This document shows positions 3,994-39,075 of a stretch of 64,000 nucleotides of DNA, one piece after another. The notes beneath the pieces were generated by a model. That model ran no database searches. It saw only the letters and a list, made by a program, of their open reading frames with translations, and had not been told where the DNA came from. Positions within the stretch are counted from its first letter, which is position 1. Every line of letters begins with the position of its first letter. The position numbers were made by a program, and so were the translations under genes. The stretch lies in contig JBAZJZ010000001.1 in assembly GCA_041650995.1 (NCBI GenBank), positions 149,757-213,756 of the forward strand. Direction: 5' to 3'. The stretch is from Patescibacteria group bacterium (GTDB lineage: Bacteria; Patescibacteriota; Patescibacteriia; XYB2-FULL-38-15).

Positions 3994-4707
3994 ATGAAAG
4001 TGCACAGATTTATCAGTAATTTTAATTTTGATAAAAAAATTACATCAATTACAAATAAAGAAATTTATAATCAAATAAAAAATGTTTTGCATCTCCGGCC
4101 GGGCGAAGAAATTATTTTGGGCGATGGGGAGGGGAGAGAGGCGCGCGCGGGAATTATGGATTTTGGAAAGCAGAGCGTGGGGATAAAGATTTTTAAAGTG
4201 GAAGCAAACGAGACCGAGCCGGAAATGAAACCAATTCTTTACGCGGCGATTTTAAAAAAAGAAAATTTTGAGTTGGTGGCGGAAAAAGCGGTGGAAGCTG
4301 GTGTGGCGGAAATCATTCCGGTTATAACTGCGAAAACTATAAAAACAAATTTGCGAATGGACAGATTGGAAAAAATTGTCCGTGAGGCGGCGGAGCAGTC
4401 TGGCCGGGGAATTTTGCCAGCAGTGGGAAAGATTTTGAAATTTAAAGAAGCTTTGGCTCATGCCGAAGAAAATGATTCAAATTTATTTTTTGAAGTTCGC
4501 GCGCCGCGTTTTGAACAAAGAAAATTAGCGGTTGATGTTGGCCGGCGAGTGGGGGTTTGGATTGGGCCAGAAGGCGGCTGGGATGAAGAGGAAATAAAAG
4601 CGGTTCAGGAGAAAAATTTTCAACTTGTCAGTTTAGGAAAATTAACTTTGCGGGCCGAGACCGCGGCAATTGTTGCCAGCTATCTCGTTGCTTCGGCAAA
4701 AAATTAA
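3994..4707 (+). CDS. rsmE: 16S rRNA m3U1498 methyltransferase RsmE
   Basis: 237 aa, C-terminal GPEGGW motif, RsmE-like length. Confidence 0.75.
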   Translation: MKVHRFISNFNFDKKITSITNKEIYNQIKNVLHLRPGEEIILGDGEGREARAGIMDFGKQSVGIKIFKVEANETEPEMKPILYAAILKKENFELVAEKAVEAGVAEIIPVITAKTIKTNLRMDRLEKIVREAAEQSGRGILPAVGKILKFKEALAHAEENDSNLFFEVRAPRFEQRKLAVDVGRRVGVWIGPEGGWDEEEIKAVQEKNFQLVSLGKLTLRAETAAIVASYLVASAKN

Positions 4708-6074: not shown

Positions 6075-6341
6075 TTACGACTTCCGCTGTCGCGTCTCGC
6101 GGTAATGTAGAATTATTCCCACGACCGTGATGATGAAGAAGAGTATTTGTACGGCACCAATGCGCCAGGCTCCAGACATGAATGCATCAATTCCGATGCC
6201 AAGTTGGCCGAGGAGCGAGAAGATCATGAAGAGTAAAAACTCCCGATCGTAAGTGAGCTTTGTGCCCTTGAGTGAAAGTCGCACCCATGCGATCGCTTGG
6301 AGGGTTATCAAGAAATACAGAACGAGTCGAAGTCCGTCCAT
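6075..6341 (-). CDS. small membrane protein, GC-elevated ORFan (88 aa from ATG; the track ORF starts at an upstream GTG)
   Basis: Only minus-strand gene in the first 60 kb. ~50 % GC versus ~33 % in the flanks. AAGGAGG RBS 5 nt before the ATG (plus CAT at 6339..6341). 2-3 TM helices. Confidence 0.55.
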   Translation of the reverse strand: MDGLRLVLYFLITLQAIAWVRLSLKGTKLTYDREFLLFMIFSLLGQLGIGIDAFMSGAWRIGAVQILFFIITVVGIILHYRETRQRKS

Positions 6342-9512: not shown

Positions 9513-9782
9513 ATGGAAGATCAAAAAACATCAATGAAATTAGAAGTGATTGAAAAAATTTCTGGGTTGGCTACAGCTAGTTTGGGTTTGGTGGCGGCTT
9601 TGGCTTGGAACGAAGCGATTTTAGAATTATTTAAAAAGATTTTTGGTGAGCAAGGTACGTTAATAGCAAAATTTATTTACGCAGTAGCGGTTACGATTTT
9701 AGTCATCTTAATTACAATTCAGTTTGGTAGGGTAATTAATAAATTGAAGGGAAAAACGGAAAAAAAGAATGACATTGCGTAA
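9513..9782 (+). CDS. small membrane protein (DUF5654-like)
   Basis: 89 aa, two hydrophobic helices. Overlaps the murJ start by 14 nt. Confidence 0.5.
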   Translation: MEDQKTSMKLEVIEKISGLATASLGLVAALAWNEAILELFKKIFGEQGTLIAKFIYAVAVTILVILITIQFGRVINKLKGKTEKKNDIA

Positions 9783-11400
9783 TATTTTTAACGGCGAATC
9801 AAAAACTATCACCGGAGCTGCTCTTCTTTTGGGGGCAGCTTCTTTGGCATCCCGTTTTTTGGGAGTTCTTCGTGATAGAGTTTTAGCCGGCGAGTTCGGA
9901 GCGGGAGATATGTTGGATATTTATTACGCCGCATTCCGAATTCCGGATTTGATTTTTAATTTATTAATTTTGGGCGCTCTTTCCGCCGGATTTATTCCAA
10001 TTTTTACTGCCGCGATATGTTCAGCAAAAGAAAAAAATGAACACCCAAAAGAAGCTTGGGAAATAGTAAACAGCGTGATGAATATTATGGGCGTGGCGCT
10101 CGCCGTGCTTTGTGGTTTGTTTATGGCATTTGCTCCCTGGATTATTCCCTTGATCACCCCGGGATTTGGATCGGAAAAAATGGCCATGACCATCACAATG
10201 ACGCAGATAATGATGCTCTCGTCGATTTTTTTGGGTTTTTCCAATATTTTAGGAAGTGTTCTGCAGTCGTTTAAAAGATTTTTTATCTATGCCCTAGCAC
10301 CGATTTTTTATAATATCGGGATAATTGTTGGCGCGCTGTTTTTTACAAAATGGTGGAATATTTATGGTTTGGCGTGGGGTGTCGTTTTGGGAGCTGCGGC
10401 TCATATGTTAATTCAGGCACCTGCTGCCTGGCAGCTGGGATTTCGTTATCGTTTGTTTTTTGATTTAGCTAATAAAAAGATTCGGGCGATTGGAAAAATG
10501 ATGATTCCAAGAACTCTTGGTCTTGCTGTATCGCAAATAAATTTAGTGGTAATGACAATAATTGCTTCAACTCTGGTTCCGGGGAGTTTAGCTGTTTTTA
10601 ATTTAGCAAATAATTTACAATATTTTCCGGTGGGAATTATCGGAATTTCTTTTGCCGTGGCTGCTTTTCCGCTTTTGGGAGAATTCGCCGCCGCCGGGAA
10701 AAAAGAGGAAATGGTTAAAAGTTTTTCCCACACCACGCGGCAAATTGTTTTTTTTATTGTTCCCGCTTCGGTTTTGCTTTTGGTTCTTCGCGCCCAGATT
10801 GTTCGCGTTATTTTCGGCGCCGGATATTTTGATTGGGAAGACACGATTTTGACAGCTGATACGCTCGCGTATTTTGTTTTAAGTTTGTTTGCTCAAGCTT
10901 TAATCCCGCTTTTGGCTAGATTCTTTTACGCCCTTCAGGACACTAAGACGCCGTTTTTTATCGGTTTGGTTTCGGCAGTAATAAATATTTTAGCTGCGGT
11001 TTTTTTGGTAAAACCTTGGGGTGTCGCGGGTTTGGCCATGGCTTTTTCAATTGCCTCAATTTTAAATTTTTGTTTACTTTGGATAATGCTTCGGATAAAA
11101 TTCGGGCCGCTTGATGAAGGGAATATTTTAAAATCAACTTTTAAAATTTCCGCTGCGGCTTCGCTTATGGCTTTTGCCGCGCAAACGATGAAATCCATTC
11201 TCGCGCCTTACGTTGATATGCAGACATTTTTGGGTGTGCTTGGGCAAGGGTTTGGCGCGGGAACTGTGGGAATTTTTATTTTTTCTGTTGTCGCTTTAGT
11301 TCTCGGCTCCCGTGAGATGGCTGCCCTCCGCGACGCCATAAAATATAAATTATTTAGAATAAAACGGCCGATTGTTAATATTGAGGAAGGCCCGAGATAA
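9769..11400 (+). CDS. murJ: lipid II flippase MurJ (MviN)
   Basis: 543 aa, ~14 TM, N-terminal GAALLLGAASLASRFLGVLRDRVLA and FRIPDLIFNLL typical of MurJ. Confidence 0.85.
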   Translation: MTLRNIFNGESKTITGAALLLGAASLASRFLGVLRDRVLAGEFGAGDMLDIYYAAFRIPDLIFNLLILGALSAGFIPIFTAAICSAKEKNEHPKEAWEIVNSVMNIMGVALAVLCGLFMAFAPWIIPLITPGFGSEKMAMTITMTQIMMLSSIFLGFSNILGSVLQSFKRFFIYALAPIFYNIGIIVGALFFTKWWNIYGLAWGVVLGAAAHMLIQAPAAWQLGFRYRLFFDLANKKIRAIGKMMIPRTLGLAVSQINLVVMTIIASTLVPGSLAVFNLANNLQYFPVGIIGISFAVAAFPLLGEFAAAGKKEEMVKSFSHTTRQIVFFIVPASVLLLVLRAQIVRVIFGAGYFDWEDTILTADTLAYFVLSLFAQALIPLLARFFYALQDTKTPFFIGLVSAVINILAAVFLVKPWGVAGLAMAFSIASILNFCLLWIMLRIKFGPLDEGNILKSTFKISAAASLMAFAAQTMKSILAPYVDMQTFLGVLGQGFGAGTVGIFIFSVVALVLGSREMAALRDAIKYKLFRIKRPIVNIEEGPR

Positions 11401-11402
11401 TT

Positions 11403-13184
11403 ATGCAGCAAGATAAGATTAGGAATTTTTGTATCATCGCTCATATTGATCACGGAAAGTCGACGCTCGCCGACCGTCTTTTGGAATTTACCGGAACCGT
11501 GTCGCGGCGGGAAATGAAAAATCAACTGCTTGATATGATGGATTTGGAACGAGAGCGGGGGATTACGATAAAATTGCAGCCGGTTAGAATGAATTACAAA
11601 GATTTTATTTTAAATTTGATTGATACTCCCGGTCATGTTGATTTTAATTATGAAGTTTCTCGTTCGCTTGCCGCAGTGGAAGGCGCTCTGCTTTTGGTTG
11701 ACGCGACTCAAGGAGTTCAGGCACAAACCCTGGGAAATTTATATTTGGCCTTAGAACAGAATTTAGCGATTATTCCGGTTGTCAATAAAGTTGATTTAAA
11801 AAACGCTGAAGTAGAAAAAACAGTTCAGGAAATTGTGGCTCTTGTCGGCTGTAAAAAAGAAGAAGTGATTTTGGCGTCTGGAAAAACCGGTGTTGGGGTG
11901 CCGGAAATTTTGGAAGCGGTTGTTAAAAAAGTTCCGCCGCCGGTTGGTGAAATTAATAATCCTCTCCGAGCTCTTATTTTTGATTCCAAATACGATGATT
12001 ATAAAGGCGTGGTGGCTTACGTCCGAGCTGTTGATGGCGAAGTAAAACGTGGCGACAAGATGTTTTTAATGGCTACAAAAACTGAAAGTGAAGTTTTGGA
12101 AGTAGGGTATTTTAAACCAAAGTTTCAGCCAGCCGAAAAATTATCGGTCGGGGAAATTGGTTATATTGTTACGGGTTTGAAAGAAATTGAAAAGTGTAGA
12201 GTTGGCGATACGGTTACTGCTCGTGGTTCAGAGTTAATGGTTCAAAGTTTGCCCGGCTACAAAGAAGTTAAGCCCATGGTTTTCGCGGGAATTTTTTGCA
12301 AAGAAGGGGATGATTTTCCGAAACTCAGAGAGGCGATTTTAAAATTAAAACTAAACGACGCATCGCTTACTTTTGAAACAGAACAATCCAAGGCTTTGGG
12401 ATTTGGTTTTCGGTGCGGTCTTTTGGGACTTCTCCACCTTGAAATAGTGGAAGAGCGACTGCGACGGGAACATAATCTTGATGTTATTGTTACGGTGCCG
12501 TCCGTGGCTTACCGTATTACTACGGCAAAAAATGAAGTGATAATTGTAAAAAGTCCGATGGAGTTGCCCGATCCGTCACACGTAAAATTGATTGAAGAGC
12601 CATGGATTAAAATTGATGTTGTTTCCCCCGGAAATTTTATTGGTGGAATTATGCAGATGGTTCAGGAAAAGAGAGGGGTGTATCAGAACACGGAATATCT
12701 TGACGCTGATCGGGTAATTTTACATTATGAAATTCCTCTCTCGGCAATTCTTGTGGATTTTTATGACAAATTAAAAAGTGTAAGTTCTGGTTATGCATCC
12801 TTGAATTATGAATTTTTTGGATATAAAAAAGCCGACGTTGTAAAAATGGATATTTTGGTCGCGAGCGAACCAGTTGAAGCGTTGGCCACAATTGTTTACC
12901 GCGATACGGCTCAGGACGTTGGTCGGAGGATTGTTCAGTCTTTGAAAAAAGTTTTGCCGCGGCAGATGTTTGAAGTTAAAATCCAGGCGGCACTTGGCGG
13001 AAAAATTGTTGCTTCAGAACATTTGCCAGCGATGAAAAAAGACGTGACTGCTAAACTTTACGGGGGAGATGTAACACGCAAGAACAAACTTTTGGAAAAA
13101 CAGAAAAAAGGTAAGAAAAAAATGAAAGCTTTGGGCAAGGTTGATATTCCACCAGAGGCATTTTTAGCGGTTTTGAAAAAATAG
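11403..13184 (+). CDS. lepA: elongation factor 4 (LepA)
   Basis: 593 aa, G1 box IIAHIDHGKSTLADRL, DTPGHVDF, NKVD. LepA-specific C-terminal domain. Confidence 0.9.
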   Translation: MQQDKIRNFCIIAHIDHGKSTLADRLLEFTGTVSRREMKNQLLDMMDLERERGITIKLQPVRMNYKDFILNLIDTPGHVDFNYEVSRSLAAVEGALLLVDATQGVQAQTLGNLYLALEQNLAIIPVVNKVDLKNAEVEKTVQEIVALVGCKKEEVILASGKTGVGVPEILEAVVKKVPPPVGEINNPLRALIFDSKYDDYKGVVAYVRAVDGEVKRGDKMFLMATKTESEVLEVGYFKPKFQPAEKLSVGEIGYIVTGLKEIEKCRVGDTVTARGSELMVQSLPGYKEVKPMVFAGIFCKEGDDFPKLREAILKLKLNDASLTFETEQSKALGFGFRCGLLGLLHLEIVEERLRREHNLDVIVTVPSVAYRITTAKNEVIIVKSPMELPDPSHVKLIEEPWIKIDVVSPGNFIGGIMQMVQEKRGVYQNTEYLDADRVILHYEIPLSAILVDFYDKLKSVSSGYASLNYEFFGYKKADVVKMDILVASEPVEALATIVYRDTAQDVGRRIVQSLKKVLPRQMFEVKIQAALGGKIVASEHLPAMKKDVTAKLYGGDVTRKNKLLEKQKKGKKKMKALGKVDIPPEAFLAVLKK

Positions 13185-13254
13185 CGAACGAGATGGAGTG
13201 GCACCGCCTTGCGGTGCCAAAAAGTAACAGCGCAAGGCGCTGTCATTCCGGAAT

Positions 13255-13279
13255 CCACGCGAAAAGCGTGGATTTTTAT
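13255..13279 (+). terminator. rho-independent terminator after lepA (ccacgc-gaaaa-gcgtgg + TTTTTAT)
   Basis: Third of three consecutive hairpins (13199..13218, 13228..13242, 13255..13271). Only this one has a U-tail. Confidence 0.7.
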
Positions 13280-13388
13280 ATTGGCGTGGAGTTGTTTGAA
13301 TTAGTATATATTAGCAATAATTATGACAATTTATTTTGGCTAATTTAAGCTAAAATAATGAATTTTTTGGGAAATAGTGTCAGAAACC

Positions 13389-13418
13389 CTTGACAAAATA
13401 CGGAATATATGTTATACT
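13389..13418 (+). promoter_or_regulatory. near-consensus sigma70 promoter TTGACA-N18-TATACT driving a ~410-nt leader and the high-GC ORFan
   Basis: cccTTGACAaaatacggaatatatgtTATACTta. Extended TG present. Confidence 0.55.
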
Positions 13419-13830
13419 TACTTGTTAAGCTGAAATAGGCTTAAAGATTAAAAAAAGTGCTTGTCGTGCTGGAACAGATGCGCTTCGCGCGCTGTTCTCC
13501 TACGAATTACGAATCTATTACGAATATACGAATAGATTACGCACATTGAAAAAAGTGCCAGAGAAACTTGGAGGAGGAAAGTCTTCGTGAACCATTAATT
13601 GGTAACCACGAGACCCGGCATGAGGTTCAATTAAATTTCGGTGTCCGTCCTGCGGATTACTAAAAGTTAATTGACCAAAATGCCACCGGCCAGTCCTGTG
13701 TTATCAGGACAGGCCAACTCACCTCCAAATTCCTCTGGCACACTCCGTAGAATCGGAGAGCCAAAGGTCAGATCGTGGATGGTTCCCGGTCTGATTTTTC
13801 ATAACTGCCAAGAGAAGAAGGAGATTGGAT

Positions 13831-14910
13831 ATGGCGGAAGCGACGAAGATCGTCCCGGTGCCGGCAGGCACCCTGACCGACGAGGATTACGAGGAAATGA
13901 TCGTCGCCGCCATGCCGTCTCCCGTGGAGACGCAGGTGGCGCCGACCCTGGTCGTGACCGAGCCGGAGAAGCCGGCCGAGCCCAAGAAGCGGCGGGTTTG
14001 CAGCAAGTGCGGCCACCACGACGGGAACAGCGTCGGCAGGATCAGGCGTGGTCGACTGGCCGAGAAGTGGGACAAGGAGCGGGGCATCAGGGTGTACTAC
14101 GTCGATTGGTTCTGCCAGCCCTGCCTCGACCGCGAGTCCGAATTGCTCGAGCTCGAATGCGATCCGCGTCCGGTCGGCAAGGGCGGATACCTCATCGCCC
14201 TTTGCGGCCTCCGGAACAAGGAGGAGGCCGAGCGCTACGCCGCTCGGACCGCCAGGGAGCGGTACCAGGTGGCGAAGGCCACATGGCTCGCCATCCTGGC
14301 GGGCGAGAAGCCCTTCCTCGAGAACGTCGAGAGGGAGACGGGGTGCTGCGAGTTCGGCGGCTGCGACACCGAAGTGGACGCCGAGGTGTTCGCTGTCGTG
14401 AACGGCCAGCTTCGCCGCTTCTGTCGCCTCCACGCCGAGACGCTGCGGGAGATCAAGGTGAAGGGGCGGAACAAAGACCCGCGCCTCATGGCCTGGCGAG
14501 GTCCGGAAGCTGAGGCCAAGTGCCAGCGGCACTTGGCCTGGCTCAGGCACCAGGCCAAGGAAGCCGAGCGCCGCGCGACCCCGGCGAGCCCCGAGTTCGT
14601 CGATCGTCTGAAGGGCGTCTTCGACCGTCGCTCCAACGATGAGCGCAAGGCCGACAGGAGCGAGGCGTCTCGGACCGCCAAGGAGCGGCAGGCGGCCTAC
14701 GCCGCGGCGCTTCGGAACGGCGGGAGCCTCGCTGACGTCGTGTCCGTGTCCGAAGAGACGGTCGAGACCAGGGACGACGGCTCGGATCCGGTCTGGGCCG
14801 AGATCGTCGCCCACAACCACGCGGTCGACGCCCGCTGCGCCGGCAAGCGCAAGAAGGGTGGCGGCAAGAAGGACGGCAAGGACAAGGGCGGCAAGAACAA
14901 GCGCCGCTAG
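13831..14910 (+). CDS. high-GC ORFan: Cys-cluster (Zn-binding-like) protein with lysine-rich C-terminal tail
   Basis: AAGGAG RBS 13817..13822, ATG 13831. ~65 % GC with G/C at ~90 % of third positions in this frame only; the minus 13768..14952 and other-frame ORFs are shadows. CSKCGHH...CQPC and CCEFGGCD...C clusters. KRKKGGGKKDGKDKGGKNKRR tail. Confidence 0.7.
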   Translation: MAEATKIVPVPAGTLTDEDYEEMIVAAMPSPVETQVAPTLVVTEPEKPAEPKKRRVCSKCGHHDGNSVGRIRRGRLAEKWDKERGIRVYYVDWFCQPCLDRESELLELECDPRPVGKGGYLIALCGLRNKEEAERYAARTARERYQVAKATWLAILAGEKPFLENVERETGCCEFGGCDTEVDAEVFAVVNGQLRRFCRLHAETLREIKVKGRNKDPRLMAWRGPEAEAKCQRHLAWLRHQAKEAERRATPASPEFVDRLKGVFDRRSNDERKADRSEASRTAKERQAAYAAALRNGGSLADVVSVSEETVETRDDGSDPVWAEIVAHNHAVDARCAGKRKKGGGKKDGKDKGGKNKRR

Positions 14911-14941
14911 CCGTCCCCTCGGTTCGTTCCTTTCAATATTT

Positions 14942-15063
14942 TCTTGGAGCAAGTAGTCTGTGCAATGCAGACACTGTTTGCAAATCGAGAAATCGAGGCG
15001 TGACAGGATCTTGCTCCAAGTCCCTTTCCTCTGAATCAGTATAAGTTGGTTTGGAGGAAAGGG
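14942..15063. repeat. nested inverted repeats downstream of the high-GC ORF
   Basis: cttggagcaag (14942..14952) / cttgctccaag (15009..15019). tccctttcctc (15021..15031) / gaggaaaggga (15053..15063). Internal gtctg-N7-cagac and a tandem aaatcgag x2. Confidence 0.6.
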
Positions 15064-15121
15064 ATTAATAACAAAAACAAAATTTTAGTCATTTTTGACT
15101 ATATTTAAATCCCATACAAGA

Positions 15122-15148
15122 ACACTGCCGCTTGGCGGTGTTTTTGTT
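15122..15148 (+). terminator. terminator-like hairpin (cactgccgc-ttg-gcggtg) + TTTTTGTTTT
   Basis: GC stem with U-run, directly upstream of the recJ promoter box (TGcTATAAT at 15159..15167). Confidence 0.5.
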
Positions 15149-15195
15149 TTAAAAGATGTGCTATAATAGTCCAATATTTATTTCTTAATTTATTT

Positions 15196-15291
15196 ATGAA
15201 AAAAAGAAATTTATTGAAAATCGTTTGGATAATTTTAAGCGCCATGATTGTTTTTTCAATGGTTATTTGGACGGTAGCCCCGATGTTTTAA
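15196..15291 (+). CDS. 31-aa hydrophobic micro-ORF (MKKRNLLKIVWIILSAMIVFSMVIWTVAPMF) between the promoter and recJ
   Basis: ATG..TAA in the leader of recJ. Single TM-like helix. Not in the ORF track (<60 aa). Confidence 0.3.
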   Translation: MKKRNLLKIVWIILSAMIVFSMVIWTVAPMF

Positions 15292-15300
15292 ATTGAGTTT

Positions 15301-17025
15301 ATGAAGTGGAAAATTGCTGAACAAATCAATGGGGAGTTTAAAAATAAATTTCCGGAGATTGATCCGGTGATTTTGCAATTACTGGCAAATCGGGGAATTA
15401 AAACTCAGGAGCAGATTGACGAATTTTTATATCCTGATTACAGCCAGGATATTCATGATCCATATCTTTTTTTAGATATGGAAAAAGCAGTGGAAAGAAT
15501 TTTTTTGGCTTTAGAAAAAAAAGAAAAAATAATAGTACACGGCGATTACGACGCTGACGGAGTTTGTTCGGCGTTAGTTGTGGTTTCTACTCTTTTAGCT
15601 ATGGGAGCTGATGTTCAGGTTTATTTGCCTCATCGCGAACTTGAGGGTTATGGATTGAATATGCAGACTGTGGAAGAACTTGGAAAAAATGGAGTGAATT
15701 TAATTATCACAACAGATTGTGGCATTAGCAATCGTCTGGAAATAAAAAGAGCTGCGGAACTTGGGATAGACGTAATTATTACCGACCATCACGCCGAGCC
15801 CCCGAATTTGCCGGAAGCGGCGTTTGCGATTATTGATCCGCACCTTTCTCGTGAGAAATATCCATTTCGCGACTTGGCTGGGGCGGGAGTTGCTTTTAAA
15901 TTAGTTCAGGCGATTTTAAAAAGTCCACAGTTTAAATTCGGCGGTTTGCAGTTTGACCCTGAGGCTTTTGAAAAATGGTTATTGGATTTAGTAGCAATTG
16001 CTACGATTACTGATATAATGCCTCTTTTGGGAGAAAACCGGACTTTGGTAAAACATGGGCTTTTGGTTTTAAATAAAACTCAGCGCATTGGTTTAAAAAA
16101 ATTAGTTGAATCGTTGGGATTAAATAAAAATAAAGATCTTGATGCGAAAAATGTTGCTTTTCAAATTGGACCGCGCCTTAACGCCGCTGGCAGAATAGAT
16201 CATGCTAATCAAGCGTATGAACTTTTAAAAATCGATGATGTGGTTGAAGTCCAAAATTTGGTTGACGCCCTAAATAAAACAAATGAAGGCAGGCAAGGTT
16301 TAAGCGAGCGCGTGATGGCCGAAGCCAAGGCGCAAATTGGGGAAGATATTGGCGAGCAAAAAGTTTTATTTGCAAAAGGCGACGGGTGGCCGGTTGGGAT
16401 TGTTGGTTTGGTTGCAGGGAAAATCGCTGAAAATTTTTGGCGACCGACTTTTATTATGACAGAGAGAGAGGAGGATATAATGGGTTCTGGCAGAAGTATT
16501 CCAGAGTTTGATATTACAGAAGGGCTTCACGAGGCAAAAGATTTTTTATCTCATTATGGCGGACACGCCGGCGCTTGCGGCTTTACTTTAAAAAATAAAA
16601 AAGATTTAAAAAAATTTGAAAAAATATTGAAAAAATTTGTGGAGCAAAAATTATCTGGATTAGAGCTTGTGCCGACATTGAATATTGATGCAGAAGTGCG
16701 TTTGGAAAAAATAAACTGGGAATTGTTTGAACTTTTGGAAAAATTTGCGCCATTTGGCAAGGCAAATGAGCGGCCGCGGTATTTAGGACGAGAATTTACA
16801 GTGGAAAGTTTTGAAAGTGTGGGGACAAATGGGAATCATCTTAGAACAAATTTGAGCCAGGGGAATGGTGTCCGAAAAAAATTTATCGGGTTTTGTTTTG
16901 GTGAGTGGTGTCGGAAATTAAAAGTTGGGGATAAGATTGATGTGGTTTTTGAGGTTGATGTTAATGAGTGGAATGGAAATAGGGAACTGCAGATGAAAAT
17001 TATTGATTTAAAATTGAGTGAATAA
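15301..17025 (+). CDS. recJ: single-stranded-DNA-specific exonuclease RecJ
   Basis: 574 aa. DHH motifs (HGDYDADGVCS, ITDHHAE), DHHA1 (GGHAGACG). Confidence 0.85.
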   Translation: MKWKIAEQINGEFKNKFPEIDPVILQLLANRGIKTQEQIDEFLYPDYSQDIHDPYLFLDMEKAVERIFLALEKKEKIIVHGDYDADGVCSALVVVSTLLAMGADVQVYLPHRELEGYGLNMQTVEELGKNGVNLIITTDCGISNRLEIKRAAELGIDVIITDHHAEPPNLPEAAFAIIDPHLSREKYPFRDLAGAGVAFKLVQAILKSPQFKFGGLQFDPEAFEKWLLDLVAIATITDIMPLLGENRTLVKHGLLVLNKTQRIGLKKLVESLGLNKNKDLDAKNVAFQIGPRLNAAGRIDHANQAYELLKIDDVVEVQNLVDALNKTNEGRQGLSERVMAEAKAQIGEDIGEQKVLFAKGDGWPVGIVGLVAGKIAENFWRPTFIMTEREEDIMGSGRSIPEFDITEGLHEAKDFLSHYGGHAGACGFTLKNKKDLKKFEKILKKFVEQKLSGLELVPTLNIDAEVRLEKINWELFELLEKFAPFGKANERPRYLGREFTVESFESVGTNGNHLRTNLSQGNGVRKKFIGFCFGEWCRKLKVGDKIDVVFEVDVNEWNGNRELQMKIIDLKLSE

Positions 17026-28046: not shown

Positions 28047-28625
28047 ATGAATAAAAAAGGTTTTACACTCGTAGAAATGATGGTGGTGCTCGCGATTTTT
28101 TCCGTGGCAACGGTTGTCATTGTGGATATTTTTATGATGGCGGGCAAAGCGCAACGCCGGACTTTAGCGATAGAAAAAATTCAATCCGACGCGCGATATT
28201 CCATAGAAGCGATTTCTAAAGAAATAAAAATGGATATGATTGATTATGGTTGGGCGGGATACGTCGGCGGAATAACTTTGCCCGAAGATGCGCTTGCTCT
28301 TTTGGACGCGGACAACAATTCGATTATTTTTAAAAAAAGTGAGGATGATTGTCCTACGGGAACGACAAAATGTCTTGTGGTAAGTCTTGATGGCGGATTG
28401 ACCTGGGCGAGCATTACTTCTGAAGGAAATAATGTGGAGGATTTAAAATTTTATATTGATCCGCCGGTTGATCCGTTTGTAATGAATGCGGGAAATACTT
28501 ACGACTCGGATAATCAGCCGAGAGTTACTATTGTTCTTGCAACCAAAGGTATTGGCGGCCGGGCAGAGGAGCAGCAAACGATTTATTTGCAGACAACGGT
28601 GTCGAGTAGAATTTACCGCAGGTAA
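28047..28625 (+). CDS. pseudopilin / minor pilin
   Basis: MNKKG|FTLVEMMVVLAIFSVA. Confidence 0.75.
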   Translation: MNKKGFTLVEMMVVLAIFSVATVVIVDIFMMAGKAQRRTLAIEKIQSDARYSIEAISKEIKMDMIDYGWAGYVGGITLPEDALALLDADNNSIIFKKSEDDCPTGTTKCLVVSLDGGLTWASITSEGNNVEDLKFYIDPPVDPFVMNAGNTYDSDNQPRVTIVLATKGIGGRAEEQQTIYLQTTVSSRIYRR

Positions 28626-28638
28626 TTCAAAATTAAAA

Positions 28639-31601
<2,963 letters not shown>

Positions 31602-34460: not shown

Positions 34461-35291
34461 ATGCAGTCAAAAAATTTAAATTTTTTTCTTGCTAATTTAT
34501 TTTTTGCCGCGATTATAATTCTATATATTTTTATTTTGTGGAAAGGTCAGGATATTGGCGGATTTTTTCTGACGGCGTTTTTTACTTTATCGGTTTTTAT
34601 TTTTACGCTTTGGCACGCCTTCAGGAAATTCGGCGCGAGAAACGCGATTCTCTTTCTTTTTTTAGTTTTATTTGTAAGTTTGGGAGCTGAGTTTATCGGC
34701 GCCAATTTGGCTAATAACTTTGAGGGGTATTACAAATATTCAGAATTTTTAGGATGGAAGTTTTTAAATATTCCGTTGCTTATAATTTTGATGTGGACGG
34801 CAATTATTTATCTTTCCTATCAGGTTTCGGAACACATTACCAATTTTCGATTTACGAAACAAACTCCGTTTTTACAAAAGTTTTGGGTTAGTTTCTGGTG
34901 CGCGCTTTTGACATCGCTTGTAGTTGTGGCTTGGGACTTTGCCCTTGAGCCGCTCGCGGTAGAGATGGGATGGTGGTCGTGGCTTCATCCCGGAGAATAT
35001 TTCGGCGTGCCGATTAATAATTTTTTCGGCTGGATGACGATTTCTTTCTCCACAGTTTTTCTTTATAAAATTTTCTTTGAGAGAGAAAGGCCGGAAGAGG
35101 CGACCTTGTTTGATTACGCTCCAATTATCGGATATGCCATGATTTGTTTTTTCACCATTCTTACGGCTATAAATATCAATAAGCCCATCTTTGCCCTGAT
35201 TGCTTTTACGGGAATGTTTCCCTTTGCCTGTATTATGGTTGTTAAATTCTTGGTTGGCCGGCTTAATTTTCCCGAACAATACAGGAAATAA
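34461..35291 (+). CDS. polytopic membrane protein (unknown family)
   Basis: 276 aa with ~7 TM helices. Trp/Phe-rich loops. Confidence 0.45.
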   Translation: MQSKNLNFFLANLFFAAIIILYIFILWKGQDIGGFFLTAFFTLSVFIFTLWHAFRKFGARNAILFLFLVLFVSLGAEFIGANLANNFEGYYKYSEFLGWKFLNIPLLIILMWTAIIYLSYQVSEHITNFRFTKQTPFLQKFWVSFWCALLTSLVVVAWDFALEPLAVEMGWWSWLHPGEYFGVPINNFFGWMTISFSTVFLYKIFFERERPEEATLFDYAPIIGYAMICFFTILTAININKPIFALIAFTGMFPFACIMVVKFLVGRLNFPEQYRK

Positions 35292-35400
35292 TCGTATAAA
35301 ACATCTTACCGCCGGCGAACATAGCTGGCGGTTTTCATTTGCTGTTAACCTTGACGCCCTTTTGTGGTATAATAAATGTAGATAGCAATACGCGAAGCAA

Positions 35401-35478
35401 GATTAATTAATTACTCAATTACTATCAATTACTTAATTACAACGAGGTAATTGGTAATTAGGTAATTAAGTAATTATT
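35401..35478. repeat. AATTAC x4 / GTAATT x4 convergent hexamer array (quasi-palindrome) in the 5' leader of the 35510 gene
   Basis: AATTAC at 35409, 35417, 35427, 35435. GTAATT at 35447, 35454, 35462, 35470. Putative promoter 35345..35373 upstream. Confidence 0.6.
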
Positions 35479-35509
35479 GTTTTGGTTTTGTGTTATTTAA
35501 ATTCAAGCG

Positions 35510-36916
35510 ATGATCACTATTGATTTGAGTTATTTTGATACTTTAGCGACAATGTCGCCGCTTGCGATTATGTGGCGGCTTTTCGCCGACGGAGGGTGGG
35601 CAATAATCCTCTGGGTTTTTCTTTGGGGATCTTGGGAAATTTGGGTTAATTGGCGGCAAAATCTTTATGAGGCCAAACGCCGTTGGATATTTTTGGCGGT
35701 GGATATTCCCAAGGCCGTCTTGGATGAGCCTGGCCAATCGCCGCGTGCCGTAGAAAATATATTTGCTCATTTGGACGGTGCTCACGGCTCTGACACTCTT
35801 TGGGAAAAGTATTGGGAAGGCAAAACTCAGGATTGGTTTAGTTTGGAAATAGTGAGCATCGAAGGGTACATCCAATTTGTCATTCGCACTCGCGATAAAT
35901 TTCGTGACCTAGTGGAAGCGGCGATTTACGCGCAATATCCCGACGCGGAAATTACGGAAGTTATTGATTACACCAAATGGGCGCCAAAGAAATTTCCCGA
36001 TCCTGAGTGGGATTTATTTGGTACAGAGTGGATTAAAGTTAGAAAAGAAGATGCCTACCCGCTTCGGACATATCATGATTTCGAAGATCCGGCGACTAAA
36101 GAATTTAAAGATCCTCTGGCAGCCGTGCTTGAAACGATGTCTAAAATGGGAAAAGGTGAACATATCTGGTTCCAAATAATTGTGACGCCGATCAGTCAGA
36201 AAGAATGGACTACGAAAGGTGTAAATTTAGTTAAAAAGTTAATCGGCGCGAAAGTGGAAGCTAAACAAACTTGGGCGGATAAAGCTTTTGATTTGCCGCT
36301 TAAGGTGGCCGATACCGCGCTTAGTCAAATTTTAAGCAGCGCGGAAGAGGCACCTAAGAAAAAAGAAGAAAAAAAAGAAGCATCGCAAATGCAATATCTT
36401 TCTCCCGGAACAAAAACTTTAGTGGAAGCCATTGAGAAAAAAATTTCCAAGATTGGTTTGCAAACAAAGGTAAGGATGATTTATCTCGCTCGAAAAGAAG
36501 TTTTTAAAAAGTCCCGCGCTGCGCATCCAATGGTTGGGGCTATTAAACAATTTAATACGCTGGATGGTCAAAGCATAAAGCCTGAGTATAAAAAAGTTGG
36601 CACAGCCGCCCATTATATTTTGGTAAAGAAAAGAGTGGCTTGGAAAAAAGAAAAAATCATGAGGGCTTACAAGGGACGCAGCCCCTCGCGCGGGATTGGT
36701 AAGGGTTTTGTTTTAAATATTGAAGAATTGGCTACAATGTGGCATTTTCCGGCGTTTTGGATTAAAGCACCGCCAGTTAAGACCGTGGAGAGTAAGCGAG
36801 GCGTTCCGCCCATTAATTTGCCTTTTGAAGAGCCGTCTTACATGAAAGCAATCGCGGAAACAGCGGGTGAGGAAGAATTGGAAAAAGAAATTCCGCCAAA
36901 CCTGCCCACGGCGTAG
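35510..36916 (+). CDS. membrane-anchored hypothetical protein partnered with the VirD4/HerA-like ATPase
   Basis: 468 aa. Two N-terminal TM helices (AIMWRLFADGGWAIILWVFLWGSWEIW), large soluble domain, K/E-rich linker. Confidence 0.45.
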   Translation: MITIDLSYFDTLATMSPLAIMWRLFADGGWAIILWVFLWGSWEIWVNWRQNLYEAKRRWIFLAVDIPKAVLDEPGQSPRAVENIFAHLDGAHGSDTLWEKYWEGKTQDWFSLEIVSIEGYIQFVIRTRDKFRDLVEAAIYAQYPDAEITEVIDYTKWAPKKFPDPEWDLFGTEWIKVRKEDAYPLRTYHDFEDPATKEFKDPLAAVLETMSKMGKGEHIWFQIIVTPISQKEWTTKGVNLVKKLIGAKVEAKQTWADKAFDLPLKVADTALSQILSSAEEAPKKKEEKKEASQMQYLSPGTKTLVEAIEKKISKIGLQTKVRMIYLARKEVFKKSRAAHPMVGAIKQFNTLDGQSIKPEYKKVGTAAHYILVKKRVAWKKEKIMRAYKGRSPSRGIGKGFVLNIEELATMWHFPAFWIKAPPVKTVESKRGVPPINLPFEEPSYMKAIAETAGEEELEKEIPPNLPTA

Positions 36917-36954: not shown

Positions 36955-39075
36955 ATGGAGGAAGTCGCATTGTTCGCTGAAACAAATTTTCGGGGGGAGC
37001 GGAAACGTTTCGGCATAAAAACCGACGATCGCCGTCGGCACATGTATATCATCGGTAAAACCGGCATGGGAAAAACTACCACGCTGGAGAATTTGATTAT
37101 CTCCGATATCAGAGCGGGTCGCGGTGTGGGCGTGGTTGATCCACATGGCGACTTAGCGGAAAAAATTCTTGATTTCATCCCGGCGGATAGAATTAACGAC
37201 GTGGTTTATTTTAATCCGGCTGACTTGGATTGGCCGATTGCTTTTAATATTTTGGAATCAATTGATCCAAGATATAAACACCTTGTCGCTTCCGGTATGA
37301 TGGGAGTTTTCAAAAAAATCTGGCCGGATGTTTGGTCGGCCCGAATGGAATATATTTTGAATAATACAATTTTAGCGCTCTTGGATTGTCCGGGGTCCAC
37401 GATGCTTGGCATCAACCGGATGTTGGCCGACAAGGATTATCGGAAAAAAGTTATTCTTAAATTGAAAGATCCGGTGGTTAAAGCTTTTTGGGTTGATGAA
37501 TTTGCAAAATATAATGAAAGATTTGCCACTGAAGCGATCGCACCAATTCAGAATAAAGTTGGTCAGTTTTTATCGGCTTCAATCGTTAGAAATATTGTTG
37601 GCCAGGTGAAATCTACGATTGATATGCGCGAGATAATGGACAGCCAAAAGATTTTTATAATGAATTTAGCAAAAGGCCGGATAGGTGAAGACGCGAGCGC
37701 TCTTTTGGGAAATATGCTTGTTACAAGAATTCAGTTGGCAGCCATGGGGCGCGTTGATATTCCGGAACCTCAGAGAAAAGATTTTTATCTCTATGTCGAC
37801 GAATTTCAAAATTTTGCCACGCTGAGTTTTGCCAATATTTTATCCGAGGCCAGAAAATATCGTTTGAATTTGATTTTAGCTCATCAATATATTGAACAGT
37901 TGGCCGAAGAAGTTGCCGCCGCTGTTTTTGGCAATGTCGGAACAATTGTTGCTTTTCGAATTGGCGCGGCTGATGCCGAGGTTTTGGAAAAGGAATTTTC
38001 ACCAACCTTCACGTCTGAAGATTTGGTAAATCTGACTAAGTACGACACGTACATGAAATTGATGATCAATGGAGTATCATCAACGCCTTTTTCCGCTTCG
38101 GGTTTGCCGCCAGTTATGGGCCCGACTGATAATCGAGATAAAGTCATCCGCGTTTCCCGGGAACGTTATGCCAAGCCGAAGGAAATCGTTGAAGAAAAAA
38201 TTATTCGCTGGAGCGGAATGCAGGTTATTGGCACTGAAGAAAAATCAGATGAAGAACTTGAAGCGGAGATTAAAAAGTCAATTGAAGAAAAAAAGAAAGA
38301 GGCAGAAGGTCTAAAAAGCGGAGTAGCGGAGGCGGGAGAAAAGAAAAAACCGGAAATGTCTCAAGTCGAACTTGAAGAACGTGCCATTACCGCTCGTGAA
38401 GCATTTTTGGAAAAATCAAAAGTTCAAGCGGTTGATTTCTTAAAAATTTTTGCTTCAGAACCAGAAGAAAGGGAAAAGATTATTGAAGAACAAGAAATAA
38501 AAAAGGAAGTGGCTGCTCCAACCGTGATTGTACGCCCGCCGAAAGTTGTGATTAAACCGACAGAACAAATTAATATAGATATACAAATAAAGGAACCGCA
38601 GCGGCATGAAAAGCCGGCAAGGGAAGAAAAAAGGGTGCCGGTTCAAAAACAAGAAAAAGCTGTCCCTCAAAAATCAGCGACAGAGGAAGATCTTCCGTCG
38701 CCCCTGAAGCTGGATGAGCCGGAGGAGAAAAAAATTGCATCTGTTTCGGAAAATCTCCCTACAGTTTCTTTGGATAAAAAATCAACTCCGGCTGTGATGC
38801 CCGCGCCTCCAGCTGTTTTGCCGATTAAAAAAGAAGAAAAGAAAAAAGAAGAGGATAGGGATAAAAAGACATTTGAAGAAAAATTTCCTTACGAAATAAT
38901 TTGCTCGGCTTGCGGAAAACCGGATAGAGTTTCTTTTAACCCCGATCCGAATCGGCCAGTTTATTGTAAGGCCTGTCTCAAAATTGAAAAAGAAAAGGAA
39001 AGGCAGGCGAAGAAAAATAAAAATAGACAGAAACAAGTGCCACGAGCCGCAGGAACGGAGCCGAAGAGTTCATAA
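36955..39075 (+). CDS. VirD4/TraG-like (DUF87/HerA-FtsK superfamily) P-loop ATPase with K/E-rich linker and C-terminal CxxC...CxxC zinc ribbon
   Basis: Walker A IIGKTGMGKTT, Walker B FYLYVDEFQNF, 'TraD/TraG' type DNA-binding core. Terminal CSACGKPDRVSFNPDPNRPVYCKAC. Confidence 0.65.
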   Translation: MEEVALFAETNFRGERKRFGIKTDDRRRHMYIIGKTGMGKTTTLENLIISDIRAGRGVGVVDPHGDLAEKILDFIPADRINDVVYFNPADLDWPIAFNILESIDPRYKHLVASGMMGVFKKIWPDVWSARMEYILNNTILALLDCPGSTMLGINRMLADKDYRKKVILKLKDPVVKAFWVDEFAKYNERFATEAIAPIQNKVGQFLSASIVRNIVGQVKSTIDMREIMDSQKIFIMNLAKGRIGEDASALLGNMLVTRIQLAAMGRVDIPEPQRKDFYLYVDEFQNFATLSFANILSEARKYRLNLILAHQYIEQLAEEVAAAVFGNVGTIVAFRIGAADAEVLEKEFSPTFTSEDLVNLTKYDTYMKLMINGVSSTPFSASGLPPVMGPTDNRDKVIRVSRERYAKPKEIVEEKIIRWSGMQVIGTEEKSDEELEAEIKKSIEEKKKEAEGLKSGVAEAGEKKKPEMSQVELEERAITAREAFLEKSKVQAVDFLKIFASEPEEREKIIEEQEIKKEVAAPTVIVRPPKVVIKPTEQINIDIQIKEPQRHEKPAREEKRVPVQKQEKAVPQKSATEEDLPSPLKLDEPEEKKIASVSENLPTVSLDKKSTPAVMPAPPAVLPIKKEEKKKEEDRDKKTFEEKFPYEIICSACGKPDRVSFNPDPNRPVYCKACLKIEKEKERQAKKNKNRQKQVPRAAGTEPKSS

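Follow-up and report, generated by a model that had tools for sequence, protein, structure and literature searches.

A paired AATTAC/GTAATT repeat array in the 5' leader of a patescibacterial DUF8128/ATPase gene pair: a candidate lineage-specific hairpin enlarged by slippage

Eight short repeats, four in one orientation followed by four in the other, lie in front of a conserved gene pair in a member of the Patescibacteria (CPR). This raises the question whether such an array is a binding site for a protein, a regulatory RNA structure or simply a product of repeat expansion. It was studied within the whole stretch of 64,000 nucleotides that was analysed (hereafter the window), which has a G+C content of about 41%, carries nearly all of its long ORFs on the + strand, has a positive GC skew in every 2-kb bin and contains no tRNA genes. 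The close protein relatives all stem from Patescibacteria metagenome-assembled genomes.

On the + strand AATTAC starts at 35409, 35417, 35427 and 35435 (start-to-start spacing 8, 10 and 8), and its reverse complement GTAATT at 35447, 35454, 35462 and 35470 (spacing 7, 8 and 8), with the six nucleotides AACGAG at 35441-35446 between the arms. From 35409 to 35475 the array reads AATTAC-TC-AATTAC-TATC-AATTAC-TT-AATTAC, AACGAG, GTAATT-G-GTAATT-AG-GTAATT-AA-GTAATT. The copy numbers, spacings and 6-nt centre given in a preliminary description of this DNA were confirmed at all positions. The 3' arm can be parsed into the units (G)GTAATT, AGGTAATT and AAGTAATT. Tandem Repeats Finder assigned a period of about 8 to both arms (3.8 and 4.1 copies), and an inverted-repeat search placed the two arms among the longest pairs of the window.

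Eight copies within 67 nt are far above chance. The densest 70-nt stretch of the window holds 8 copies, whereas simulations never exceeded 4 per 70 nt, neither in 300 first-order Markov sequences modelled on the window nor in 200 sequences of 64 kb with the composition of the leader (75% A+T). A Poisson estimate for an 8-copy cluster is about 4e-15. The cluster exceeds AT-rich expectation; the preliminary description had regarded a failure to do so as speaking against its reading. Counted on both strands of the window, the hexamer occurs 67 times vs 51.5 expected, a number reached in 2 of 100 shuffles, and this mild excess is essentially due to the leader cluster. The search for further arrays that the preliminary description had suggested led to a homologous array in three relatives (L083-L085); in the 64-kb window, hexamer and inverted-repeat searches gave no second paired-array site. 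AATTAC/GTAATT pairs at 4016-4052, 9710-9737 and 28622-28657 were rejected as further arrays; they are isolated copies, the first two within coding sequence.

The array and its surroundings comprise the following features.

34461-35291: gene of a Caroten_synth-family membrane protein, upstream
35308-35332, + strand: intrinsic terminator of the Caroten_synth-like gene, GC-rich stem followed by TTTT (terminator scan)
35345-35373, + strand: sigma-70-type promoter with -35 TTAACC at 35345-35350, a 17-nt spacer and an extended -10 TGgTATAAT at 35365-35373
35380-35408, + strand: 5' outer hairpin strand, pairing in MFE structures with 35476-35499 mostly via G-U and A-U
35409-35440, + strand: 5' arm, AATTAC x4, spacers TC, TATC and TT
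35441-35446, + strand: centre AACGAG; the predicted MFE loop is about 10 nt, with the innermost arm bases unpaired
35447-35475, + strand: 3' arm, GTAATT x4, spacers G, AG and AA
35476-35499, + strand: U/G-rich 3' flank ATTGTTTTGGTTTTGTGTTATTTA, the 3' outer hairpin strand, kept in L083-L085
35510-36916, + strand: gene 1, a 468-aa DUF8128 membrane protein (PF26449, precomputed annotation)
36955-39075, + strand: gene 2, a 706-aa TrwB/VirD4-like ATPase with a C-terminal treble-clef zinc finger (PF10412, PF12696, PF23477)

The terminator is the end of the preceding transcription unit. In the alignment, relatives have a hairpin and a T-run at this position with differing stem sequences. The promoter reached 10 of 12 matches in the scan, including the TG-extended -10, and TTAAC, TG and TATAAT are invariant across ten aligned relatives in which the adjoining terminator stems vary. 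Its identity is thus well supported by sequence conservation, in agreement with the putative promoter of the preliminary description. Since the array is located downstream of this conserved promoter, it is most likely transcribed within the 5' UTR of the DUF8128/ATPase pair, with a transcription start predicted near A35380, 7 nt past the -10. The start codon proposed at 35510 agrees with the conserved ATGATCAC start of the orthologues, and this AUG has no Shine-Dalgarno sequence. What had been described as the leader of an ATPase operon does precede a two-gene unit, but the first gene encodes the DUF8128 membrane protein and the ATPase comes second. In the Pfam version used, the DUF8128 protein had no family match. 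Gene order is shared by all close relatives, and the pair has more than 500 relatives, patescibacterial, among species-representative genomes.

The palindrome that had been noted in the preliminary description as long and imperfect is borne out by the sequence, and folding the leader RNA, as suggested there, gave one hairpin. For the sense RNA of 35375-35512 a single long structure of -36 kcal/mol was predicted (mean of shuffled sequences -19.6 kcal/mol, z -5.2; none of 200 shuffles matched it). It spans 35379/35380, the predicted +1, to 35499, so that essentially the entire leader, starting at about +1 and stopping 10 nt short of the AUG, is predicted to form one long, AU-rich and bulged hairpin. 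Among 3,195 segments of 120 nt, taken every 20 nt over the 64 kb and corrected for G+C, 35380-35499 ranked third in structure (z -4.66). The leader RNA folds with -34.6 kcal/mol in sense vs -22.6 kcal/mol in antisense. The outer stem (35380-35408 with 35476-35499) contains G-U pairs and is formed in the sense RNA only, whereas the array core folds alike on both strands (-21.1 vs -22.0 kcal/mol); strand specificity therefore lies only in the weak outer stem. As single-stranded DNA the core reaches -12.2 kcal/mol (z -4.7). Cruciform extrusion from the core is conceivable on these predictions, although the bulges of the arms would hinder it. Rfam 15 covariance models gave no match at gathering score in the 64-kb window, and at the leader, with E up to 10, only chance-level hits (E at least 1.7; 12-17 bits vs cut-offs of 35-200).

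Leaders of DUF8128 orthologues were gathered via a genome scan and exact-protein look-ups. The array was absent from 13 orthologous leaders (L001, L002, L003, L004, L081, L082, L087, L088, L209, L210, L211, L212-215 and L216), where L212-215 were entered as one lineage, the leader being identical in these four samples. The proteins of these relatives share 65-92% identity, their leaders are about 20-55 nt long, and the intergenic region that contains the array exceeds those of the closest relatives by about 60-70 nt. In L210 the 33-nt promoter core from TTAACC through TATAAT (-35 to -10) equals that of the window, and an AT-rich stretch occupies the position of the array. The 3' flank ATTGTTTTGGTTTTGTGTTATTTA is recognisable in both L210 and L086, which do not have the array. 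Among more distant loci, up to L080, a scan that required at least three exact hexamers per arm found no AATTAC/GTAATT array. Because thirteen orthologous leaders do without the array, any function it may have is dispensable.

A homologous array was found in L083, L084 and L085, one lineage with 86% protein identity that is represented in three independent assemblies. Its 5' arm consists of AATTAC, AGTTAC, AGTTAC, AATTAC and AATTTC, and its 3' arm is built from GAGTAA[C/T]T units. Common to the window and this lineage are the inner spacers TAT[C/A] and TT, the 3' end GTAATT-AA-GTAATT-ATTGTTTTG, and the identical flank ATTGTTTTGATTTTGTGTCATTTAGATTCAAATA-ATG. Since flank, inner spacers and terminal GTAATT-AA-GTAATT agree, the arrays of the window and of L083-L085 are homologous and not independent inventions. 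The preliminary description had regarded absence from orthologous leaders as speaking against the array; the thirteen leaders indeed do not have it, but L083-L085 keep a homologous one. Judged by this distribution, restricted to the window and L083-L085, the array would not qualify as a conserved cis-regulatory leader of the DUF8128/ATPase pair.

Between the window and the L083 lineage the coding DNA differs by 12-21% and the 5' flank has diverged beyond recognition, and in both the two arms are complementary. The AGTTAC units of the L083 lineage pair with GTAACT units, which replaces an A-U pair of the window by G-C on both sides, and these variants occur in mirrored order across the arms. 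Such compensatory changes were read off MFE structures of three array-bearing sequences with differing unit numbers. They could also stem from DNA-level exchange between the arms and not from selection for RNA pairing.

The number of units per arm (5' plus 3') is 4+4 in the window, 5+8 in L083, 5+6 in L084 and 1+1 in L086; the L085 contig begins within the array. This difference between the 3' arms of L083 and L084 contrasts with 99-100% identity in the flanking genes. The contigs L084 and L085 come from Logan, whose assemblies we take to be built from short k-mers (k=31). In that case the assembly could account for some of the difference in copy number, since about 39 nt of perfect 8-nt repeats would lie at the resolution limit; the extra GAGTAATT unit of L083 is not explicable in this way. 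In L086 (83% identity) a single-unit hairpin, AATTTC-AAGAA-GAAATT, takes the same position and is followed by the same 3' flank. AATTTC is retained in L083 as the innermost 5' unit.

A different short leader type occupies the last ~50 nt before the ATG in the closest relatives, L001, L002, L003, L081, L082 and L087. It ends in (G/A)TAATTT(A/G)CGTAGTG-ATG, or, a little more diverged in L081, GTAATTTGTCATAGTG-ATG. In L002 and L087 it contains a small hairpin (GTAAATTA / TAATTTGC), and five of these six leaders carry one GTAATT some 25 nt upstream of the start codon. That two leader types exist among genomes whose coding sequences are equally far apart suggests rapid turnover of, or recombination in, the leader.

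Arrays of this general build have been described before. In Xanthomonas campestris and X. axonopodis GGGAATC heptamers form intergenic arrays of mostly four units, with about 180 arrays per genome, usually near the end of a neighbouring ORF, and with convergent inverted pairs capable of stem-loop formation 70-75 times per genome (Rehm et al. 2015, PMC4692102). Array length differs between close Xanthomonas relatives, the type (single or inverted pair) is usually retained, and a function was not found (PMC4692102). Like these, the array of the window consists of head-to-tail units of 6-9 nt, here four per arm, has the reverse-complement array nearby on the same strand, here 6 nt apart, and varies in unit number at the same locus among relatives, with the caveat of the Logan assemblies. 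It is a paired inverted tandem-repeat (SSR) array of the kind already known from Xanthomonas. In contrast to the G-rich Xanthomonas heptamer, the unit is AT-rich, GTAATT plus a spacer of 1-4 nt with a period of 7-10, and for this reason a G-quadruplex is not possible. Furthermore, it forms a single cluster in 64 kb, within a 5' UTR, unlike the many loci per genome of Xanthomonas.

Tandem arms with other units were found in further patescibacterial genomes. A scan of patescibacterial loci (584 kb) for hexamers that occur at least three times and then at least three times as their reverse complement yielded TGGAAAY x3 / RTTTCCA x3 before a gene start (L006, 1824-1885), CGTCCT x4 / GGACG x4 in an intergenic region just upstream of the promoter of a DUF8128 orthologue (L064, 2872-2940), and ACAAAT x4 / ATTTGT x4 with mirrored spacers of 2, 5 and 3 between the DUF8128 and ATPase genes (L075, 4465-4558). 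A looser scan added L030 (about 2590-2660, unit TAAAGTCC), again just upstream of the promoter of a DUF8128 orthologue, and L045 (about 2860-2920, unit GAATGC). At the level of sequence, tandem-arm hairpins thus recur in patescibacterial genomes with an arbitrary unit. L006 additionally contains, at about 2850-2945 upstream of the promoter of its DUF8128 orthologue, GAATTT/AAATTC-type motifs in both orientations (AATTTCGAATTTTGAATTTCGA ... AAATTCAGAATTAAGAATTCTGA ... GAAATTCTGA).

Taken together, we slightly favour the explanation that the array is a cis-acting, lineage-specific leader hairpin that has grown by slippage, a package of origin, placement, structure and effect. The starting point would be a small hairpin in the leader, AU-rich and of the form AATTTC-loop-GAAATT, such as is present in L086. 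Replication slippage may then have duplicated hexamer-plus-spacer units of about 8 nt on both arms, inside the 5' UTR of the DUF8128/TrwB-like ATPase pair and downstream of its conserved promoter. Any effect would be exerted in cis at the RNA level: a 5'-terminal stem-loop may alter mRNA stability, a long duplex may offer a site for RNase III-type processing, or the conserved U-rich tract upstream of the SD-less start codon may be partially sequestered. The number of units would set the strength of the effect and, since it readily changes, the structure could be a heritable tuning element. The array looks like a product of repeat expansion that would tune expression at most, and it is probably not a conserved operator, riboswitch, mobile element or switch. 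Of the two readings offered in the preliminary description, the structured 5' UTR is the better one, but it applies to a lineage-specific and copy-number-variable structure and not to a conserved regulatory RNA.

The leaders of ompA, ermC, rnc and pnp provide 5'-terminal stabiliser stem-loops or long-duplex RNase III sites. The array resembles them in its predicted stem-loop at the mRNA 5' end and in a long imperfect duplex that exceeds 20 bp. In contrast to these unique and conserved sequences, it is built from repeats, variable in copy number and missing in most orthologues.

The main rival is a neutral by-product, that is a slippage-prone palindromic minisatellite which is tolerated in a non-essential leader and does not affect expression. 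We consider this a serious possibility, though clearly the less probable one. The absence from thirteen orthologous leaders, including L210 with its identical promoter core, fits it well, as do the variation in unit number between near-identical strains, the arrays of like kind but arbitrary unit at many intergenic sites, and the comparable Xanthomonas or Nostoc arrays for which no function has been found (PMC4692102). It accounts less well for arms that stay complementary in two lineages with this degree of coding divergence and an unrecognisable 5' flank, or for the mirroring of AGTTAC and GTAACT units between the arms. Moreover, a hairpin of -35 kcal/mol across the whole 5' UTR is unlikely to leave the fate of the mRNA untouched.

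Readings that go beyond a slippage-grown leader hairpin appear unlikely to us. The unit-variable hairpin could act as a heritable, contingency-like expression rheostat via mRNA structure, differing in this from promoter-spacing or frameshift contingency loci and having the DUF8128/TrwB-like ATPase pair as its target. More generally, tandem-arm hairpins, which occur with different units in several Patescibacteria and as a dispersed [G/T][G/A]GTAATT family in Acidobacteriota, could constitute an unrecognised class of self-extending intergenic elements, possibly with a dedicated reading factor.

The iteron or operator array that the preliminary description had proposed seems rather improbable. 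A multimeric DNA-binding protein, e.g. of the ribbon-helix-helix type that recognises 7-8-bp repeats, would bind the eight hexamers and block or loop the promoter region. Operators composed of 7-8-bp repeats in direct and inverted orientation are known from the omega-protein heptads, the MetJ metboxes and the ParG sites, and ribbon-helix-helix operators overlap the promoter they control, are strictly phased and have a cognate regulator gene. An asymmetric hexamer that occurs eight times, in both orientations and with a period of about 8 bp, recalls these precedents, and the contiguous 7-8-bp units, direct and inverted, resemble omega heptads, 8-bp metboxes and the 4+4-bp boxes of ParG. Unlike these operators, however, the array extends from about +29 to +96 relative to the predicted start and does not overlap the -35/-10, its spacing is irregular (8, 10, 8 and 7, 8, 8), and no recognisable DNA-binding domain was found by Pfam in the neighbouring genes, two of which are unannotated. 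No additional site exists in the 64 kb, relatives with the same promoter and genes do not have the array, and the arms of L083 and L084 are unequal (6-8 vs 5 units). The homeodomain-like TAATT recognition suggested in the same context found no support.

A transcription attenuator, in which the hairpin and the U-rich tract AUUGUUUUGGUUUU end or pause some transcripts before the coding region, is similarly doubtful. U occupies six of the first eight bases past the last GTAATT, and the hairpins of the window, of L083-L085 and of L086 all precede a U/G-rich 3' flank, which in L086 contains less U. On the other hand, intrinsic terminators have a short GC-rich stem and a loop of 3-8 nt directly before a U-run; the terminator scan did not call the array, and its AU-rich stem, with only one G-C pair per hexamer, is much longer and more bulged than the canonical terminators of this genome, such as that at 35308-35332. 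No competing anti-terminator structure is apparent. As L210 has the U-rich tract but not the hairpin, this tract probably has another role. The origin as a MITE- or REP-like mobile element inserted in the leader, or as an assembly artefact, is very unlikely: the palindromic build and the extra length of the intergenic region would fit, but there is no second copy and no target-site duplication in the window, the arms are sub-repeats and not unique terminal repeats, homologous arrays occupy the same position in three independent assemblies, and the imperfect arms are unlike chimeric fold-back artefacts.

Another family with some resemblance to the slippage-grown hairpin favoured here are the direct TAACTGA repeats that precede start codons in marine Beggiatoaceae, in Cyanobacteria and in some Bacteroidetes (MacGregor 2015, PMC4679880). 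These are exact heptamers at about 170 sites per genome, with one inverted case in 170 sets and with 1 nt as the most frequent distance to the start codon; they have been proposed to bind a translational regulator and to act posttranscriptionally (PMC4679880). Both have short AT-rich units in the 5' leader of a gene without a Shine-Dalgarno sequence, and TAACTGA is present within the repeated unit GAGTAACT of the L083 3' arm. In contrast to the TAACTGA family, our array has a GTAATT unit, is inverted, ends 34 nt before the ATG and occurs at a single site. With REPs and other dispersed extragenic palindromes it shares the intergenic, imperfect palindrome capable of forming an RNA hairpin; in contrast to REPs, which have many copies mostly downstream of genes, it occurs once in 64 kb, in a leader. 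No publication matched the literal repeat sequences in a literature search.

Paired tandem-repeat palindromes have already been catalogued in Xanthomonas and cyanobacteria with no role assigned. The present value of the locus is mainly that of a well-documented case of repeat-driven hairpin growth, and it does not amount to evidence for a new regulatory system. If the hairpin alters mRNA stability or translation, it would provide an uncultivated bacterium of reduced genome with a simple mutational dial, which would act on a conserved membrane/ATPase system. Located within a defined 5' UTR and with natural variants of 1, 4 and 5 to 8 units, the array would be a convenient test object.

A metagenome scan with GTAAYTNNGTAATTNNGTAATT, three GTAATT at an 8-nt period, returned at least 120 contigs. 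Neither the AATTAC-first arrangement of the window nor a homologous leader was among the matches listed. Three control patterns with permuted units gave 117 to at least 120 matches in viral contigs, as for GTAATT. A link to metagenome families through the shared GTAATT was therefore rejected as an ascertainment effect, given that controls match as often and that the patescibacterial units vary.

Among the matches listed were dispersed palindromic octamer arrays on high-GC contigs (median 57%) of JGI soil and peat metagenomes (L095-L208). They consist of [G/T][G/A]GTAATT x3-4, a short centre that is often rich in GC (e.g. AAAACCGC..GCGGTTTT) and the complement x3-4, with a period of 8 nt in 313 of the 332 spacings among the matches listed; examples are L118 9392-9481, L116 552-640, L197 475-580, and L201 4182-4237 and about 10130-10160. 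About half are located between convergent ORFs according to a rough GC3-based call, which was wrong at one hand-checked site (L118). At several sites, e.g. in L118, L197 and L117, the array adjoins a stop codon, and six contigs carry two separate sites. The array of L118 follows an rpoN gene, the named relatives of which are Candidatus Sulfotelmatobacter (Acidobacteriota), and the orthologous rpoN 3'-ends in L178 and L195 carry arrays of different units. Searching the literature for the octamer sequence gave no match. Judged by sequence and position, this family looks like a REP-like or terminator-associated element, and these acidobacterial GTAATT arrays are much closer to REPs than the array of the window.

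Two further GTAATT arrays were found upstream of genes, both GTAATT-first and thus opposite to that of the window. In L170 (Candidatus Wolfebacteria-like) a nearly loop-less GTAATT x3 / AATTAC x4 palindrome at 6173-6225 follows the RNase Y gene and ends 9 nt before the ATG of HU (PF00216), with a fold of -22.3 kcal/mol (z -2.85). L151 (GC 0.38) has a GTAATT/AATTGC array upstream of an ORF that starts with MGQKVHPKAFRL and looks like ribosomal protein S3.

Elsewhere in the window, an ORF of about 359 aa at 13832-14910 (+ strand) stands out by about 65% G+C vs 41% in the genome, and the region including its flanks (13160-15140) holds three of the eight most structured 120-nt segments of the 64 kb. 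The ORF has no Pfam family, 13000-15400 gave no Rfam match, and the gene was probably acquired horizontally. About 300 nt upstream of this ORF, downstream of a promoter-like TTGACA...TATACT, the window contains its second leader array of short units, in direct orientation only, which reads TACGAAT-TACGAAT-C-TAT-TACGAAT-A-TACGAAT-AGAT-TACGCAC at 13501-13541.
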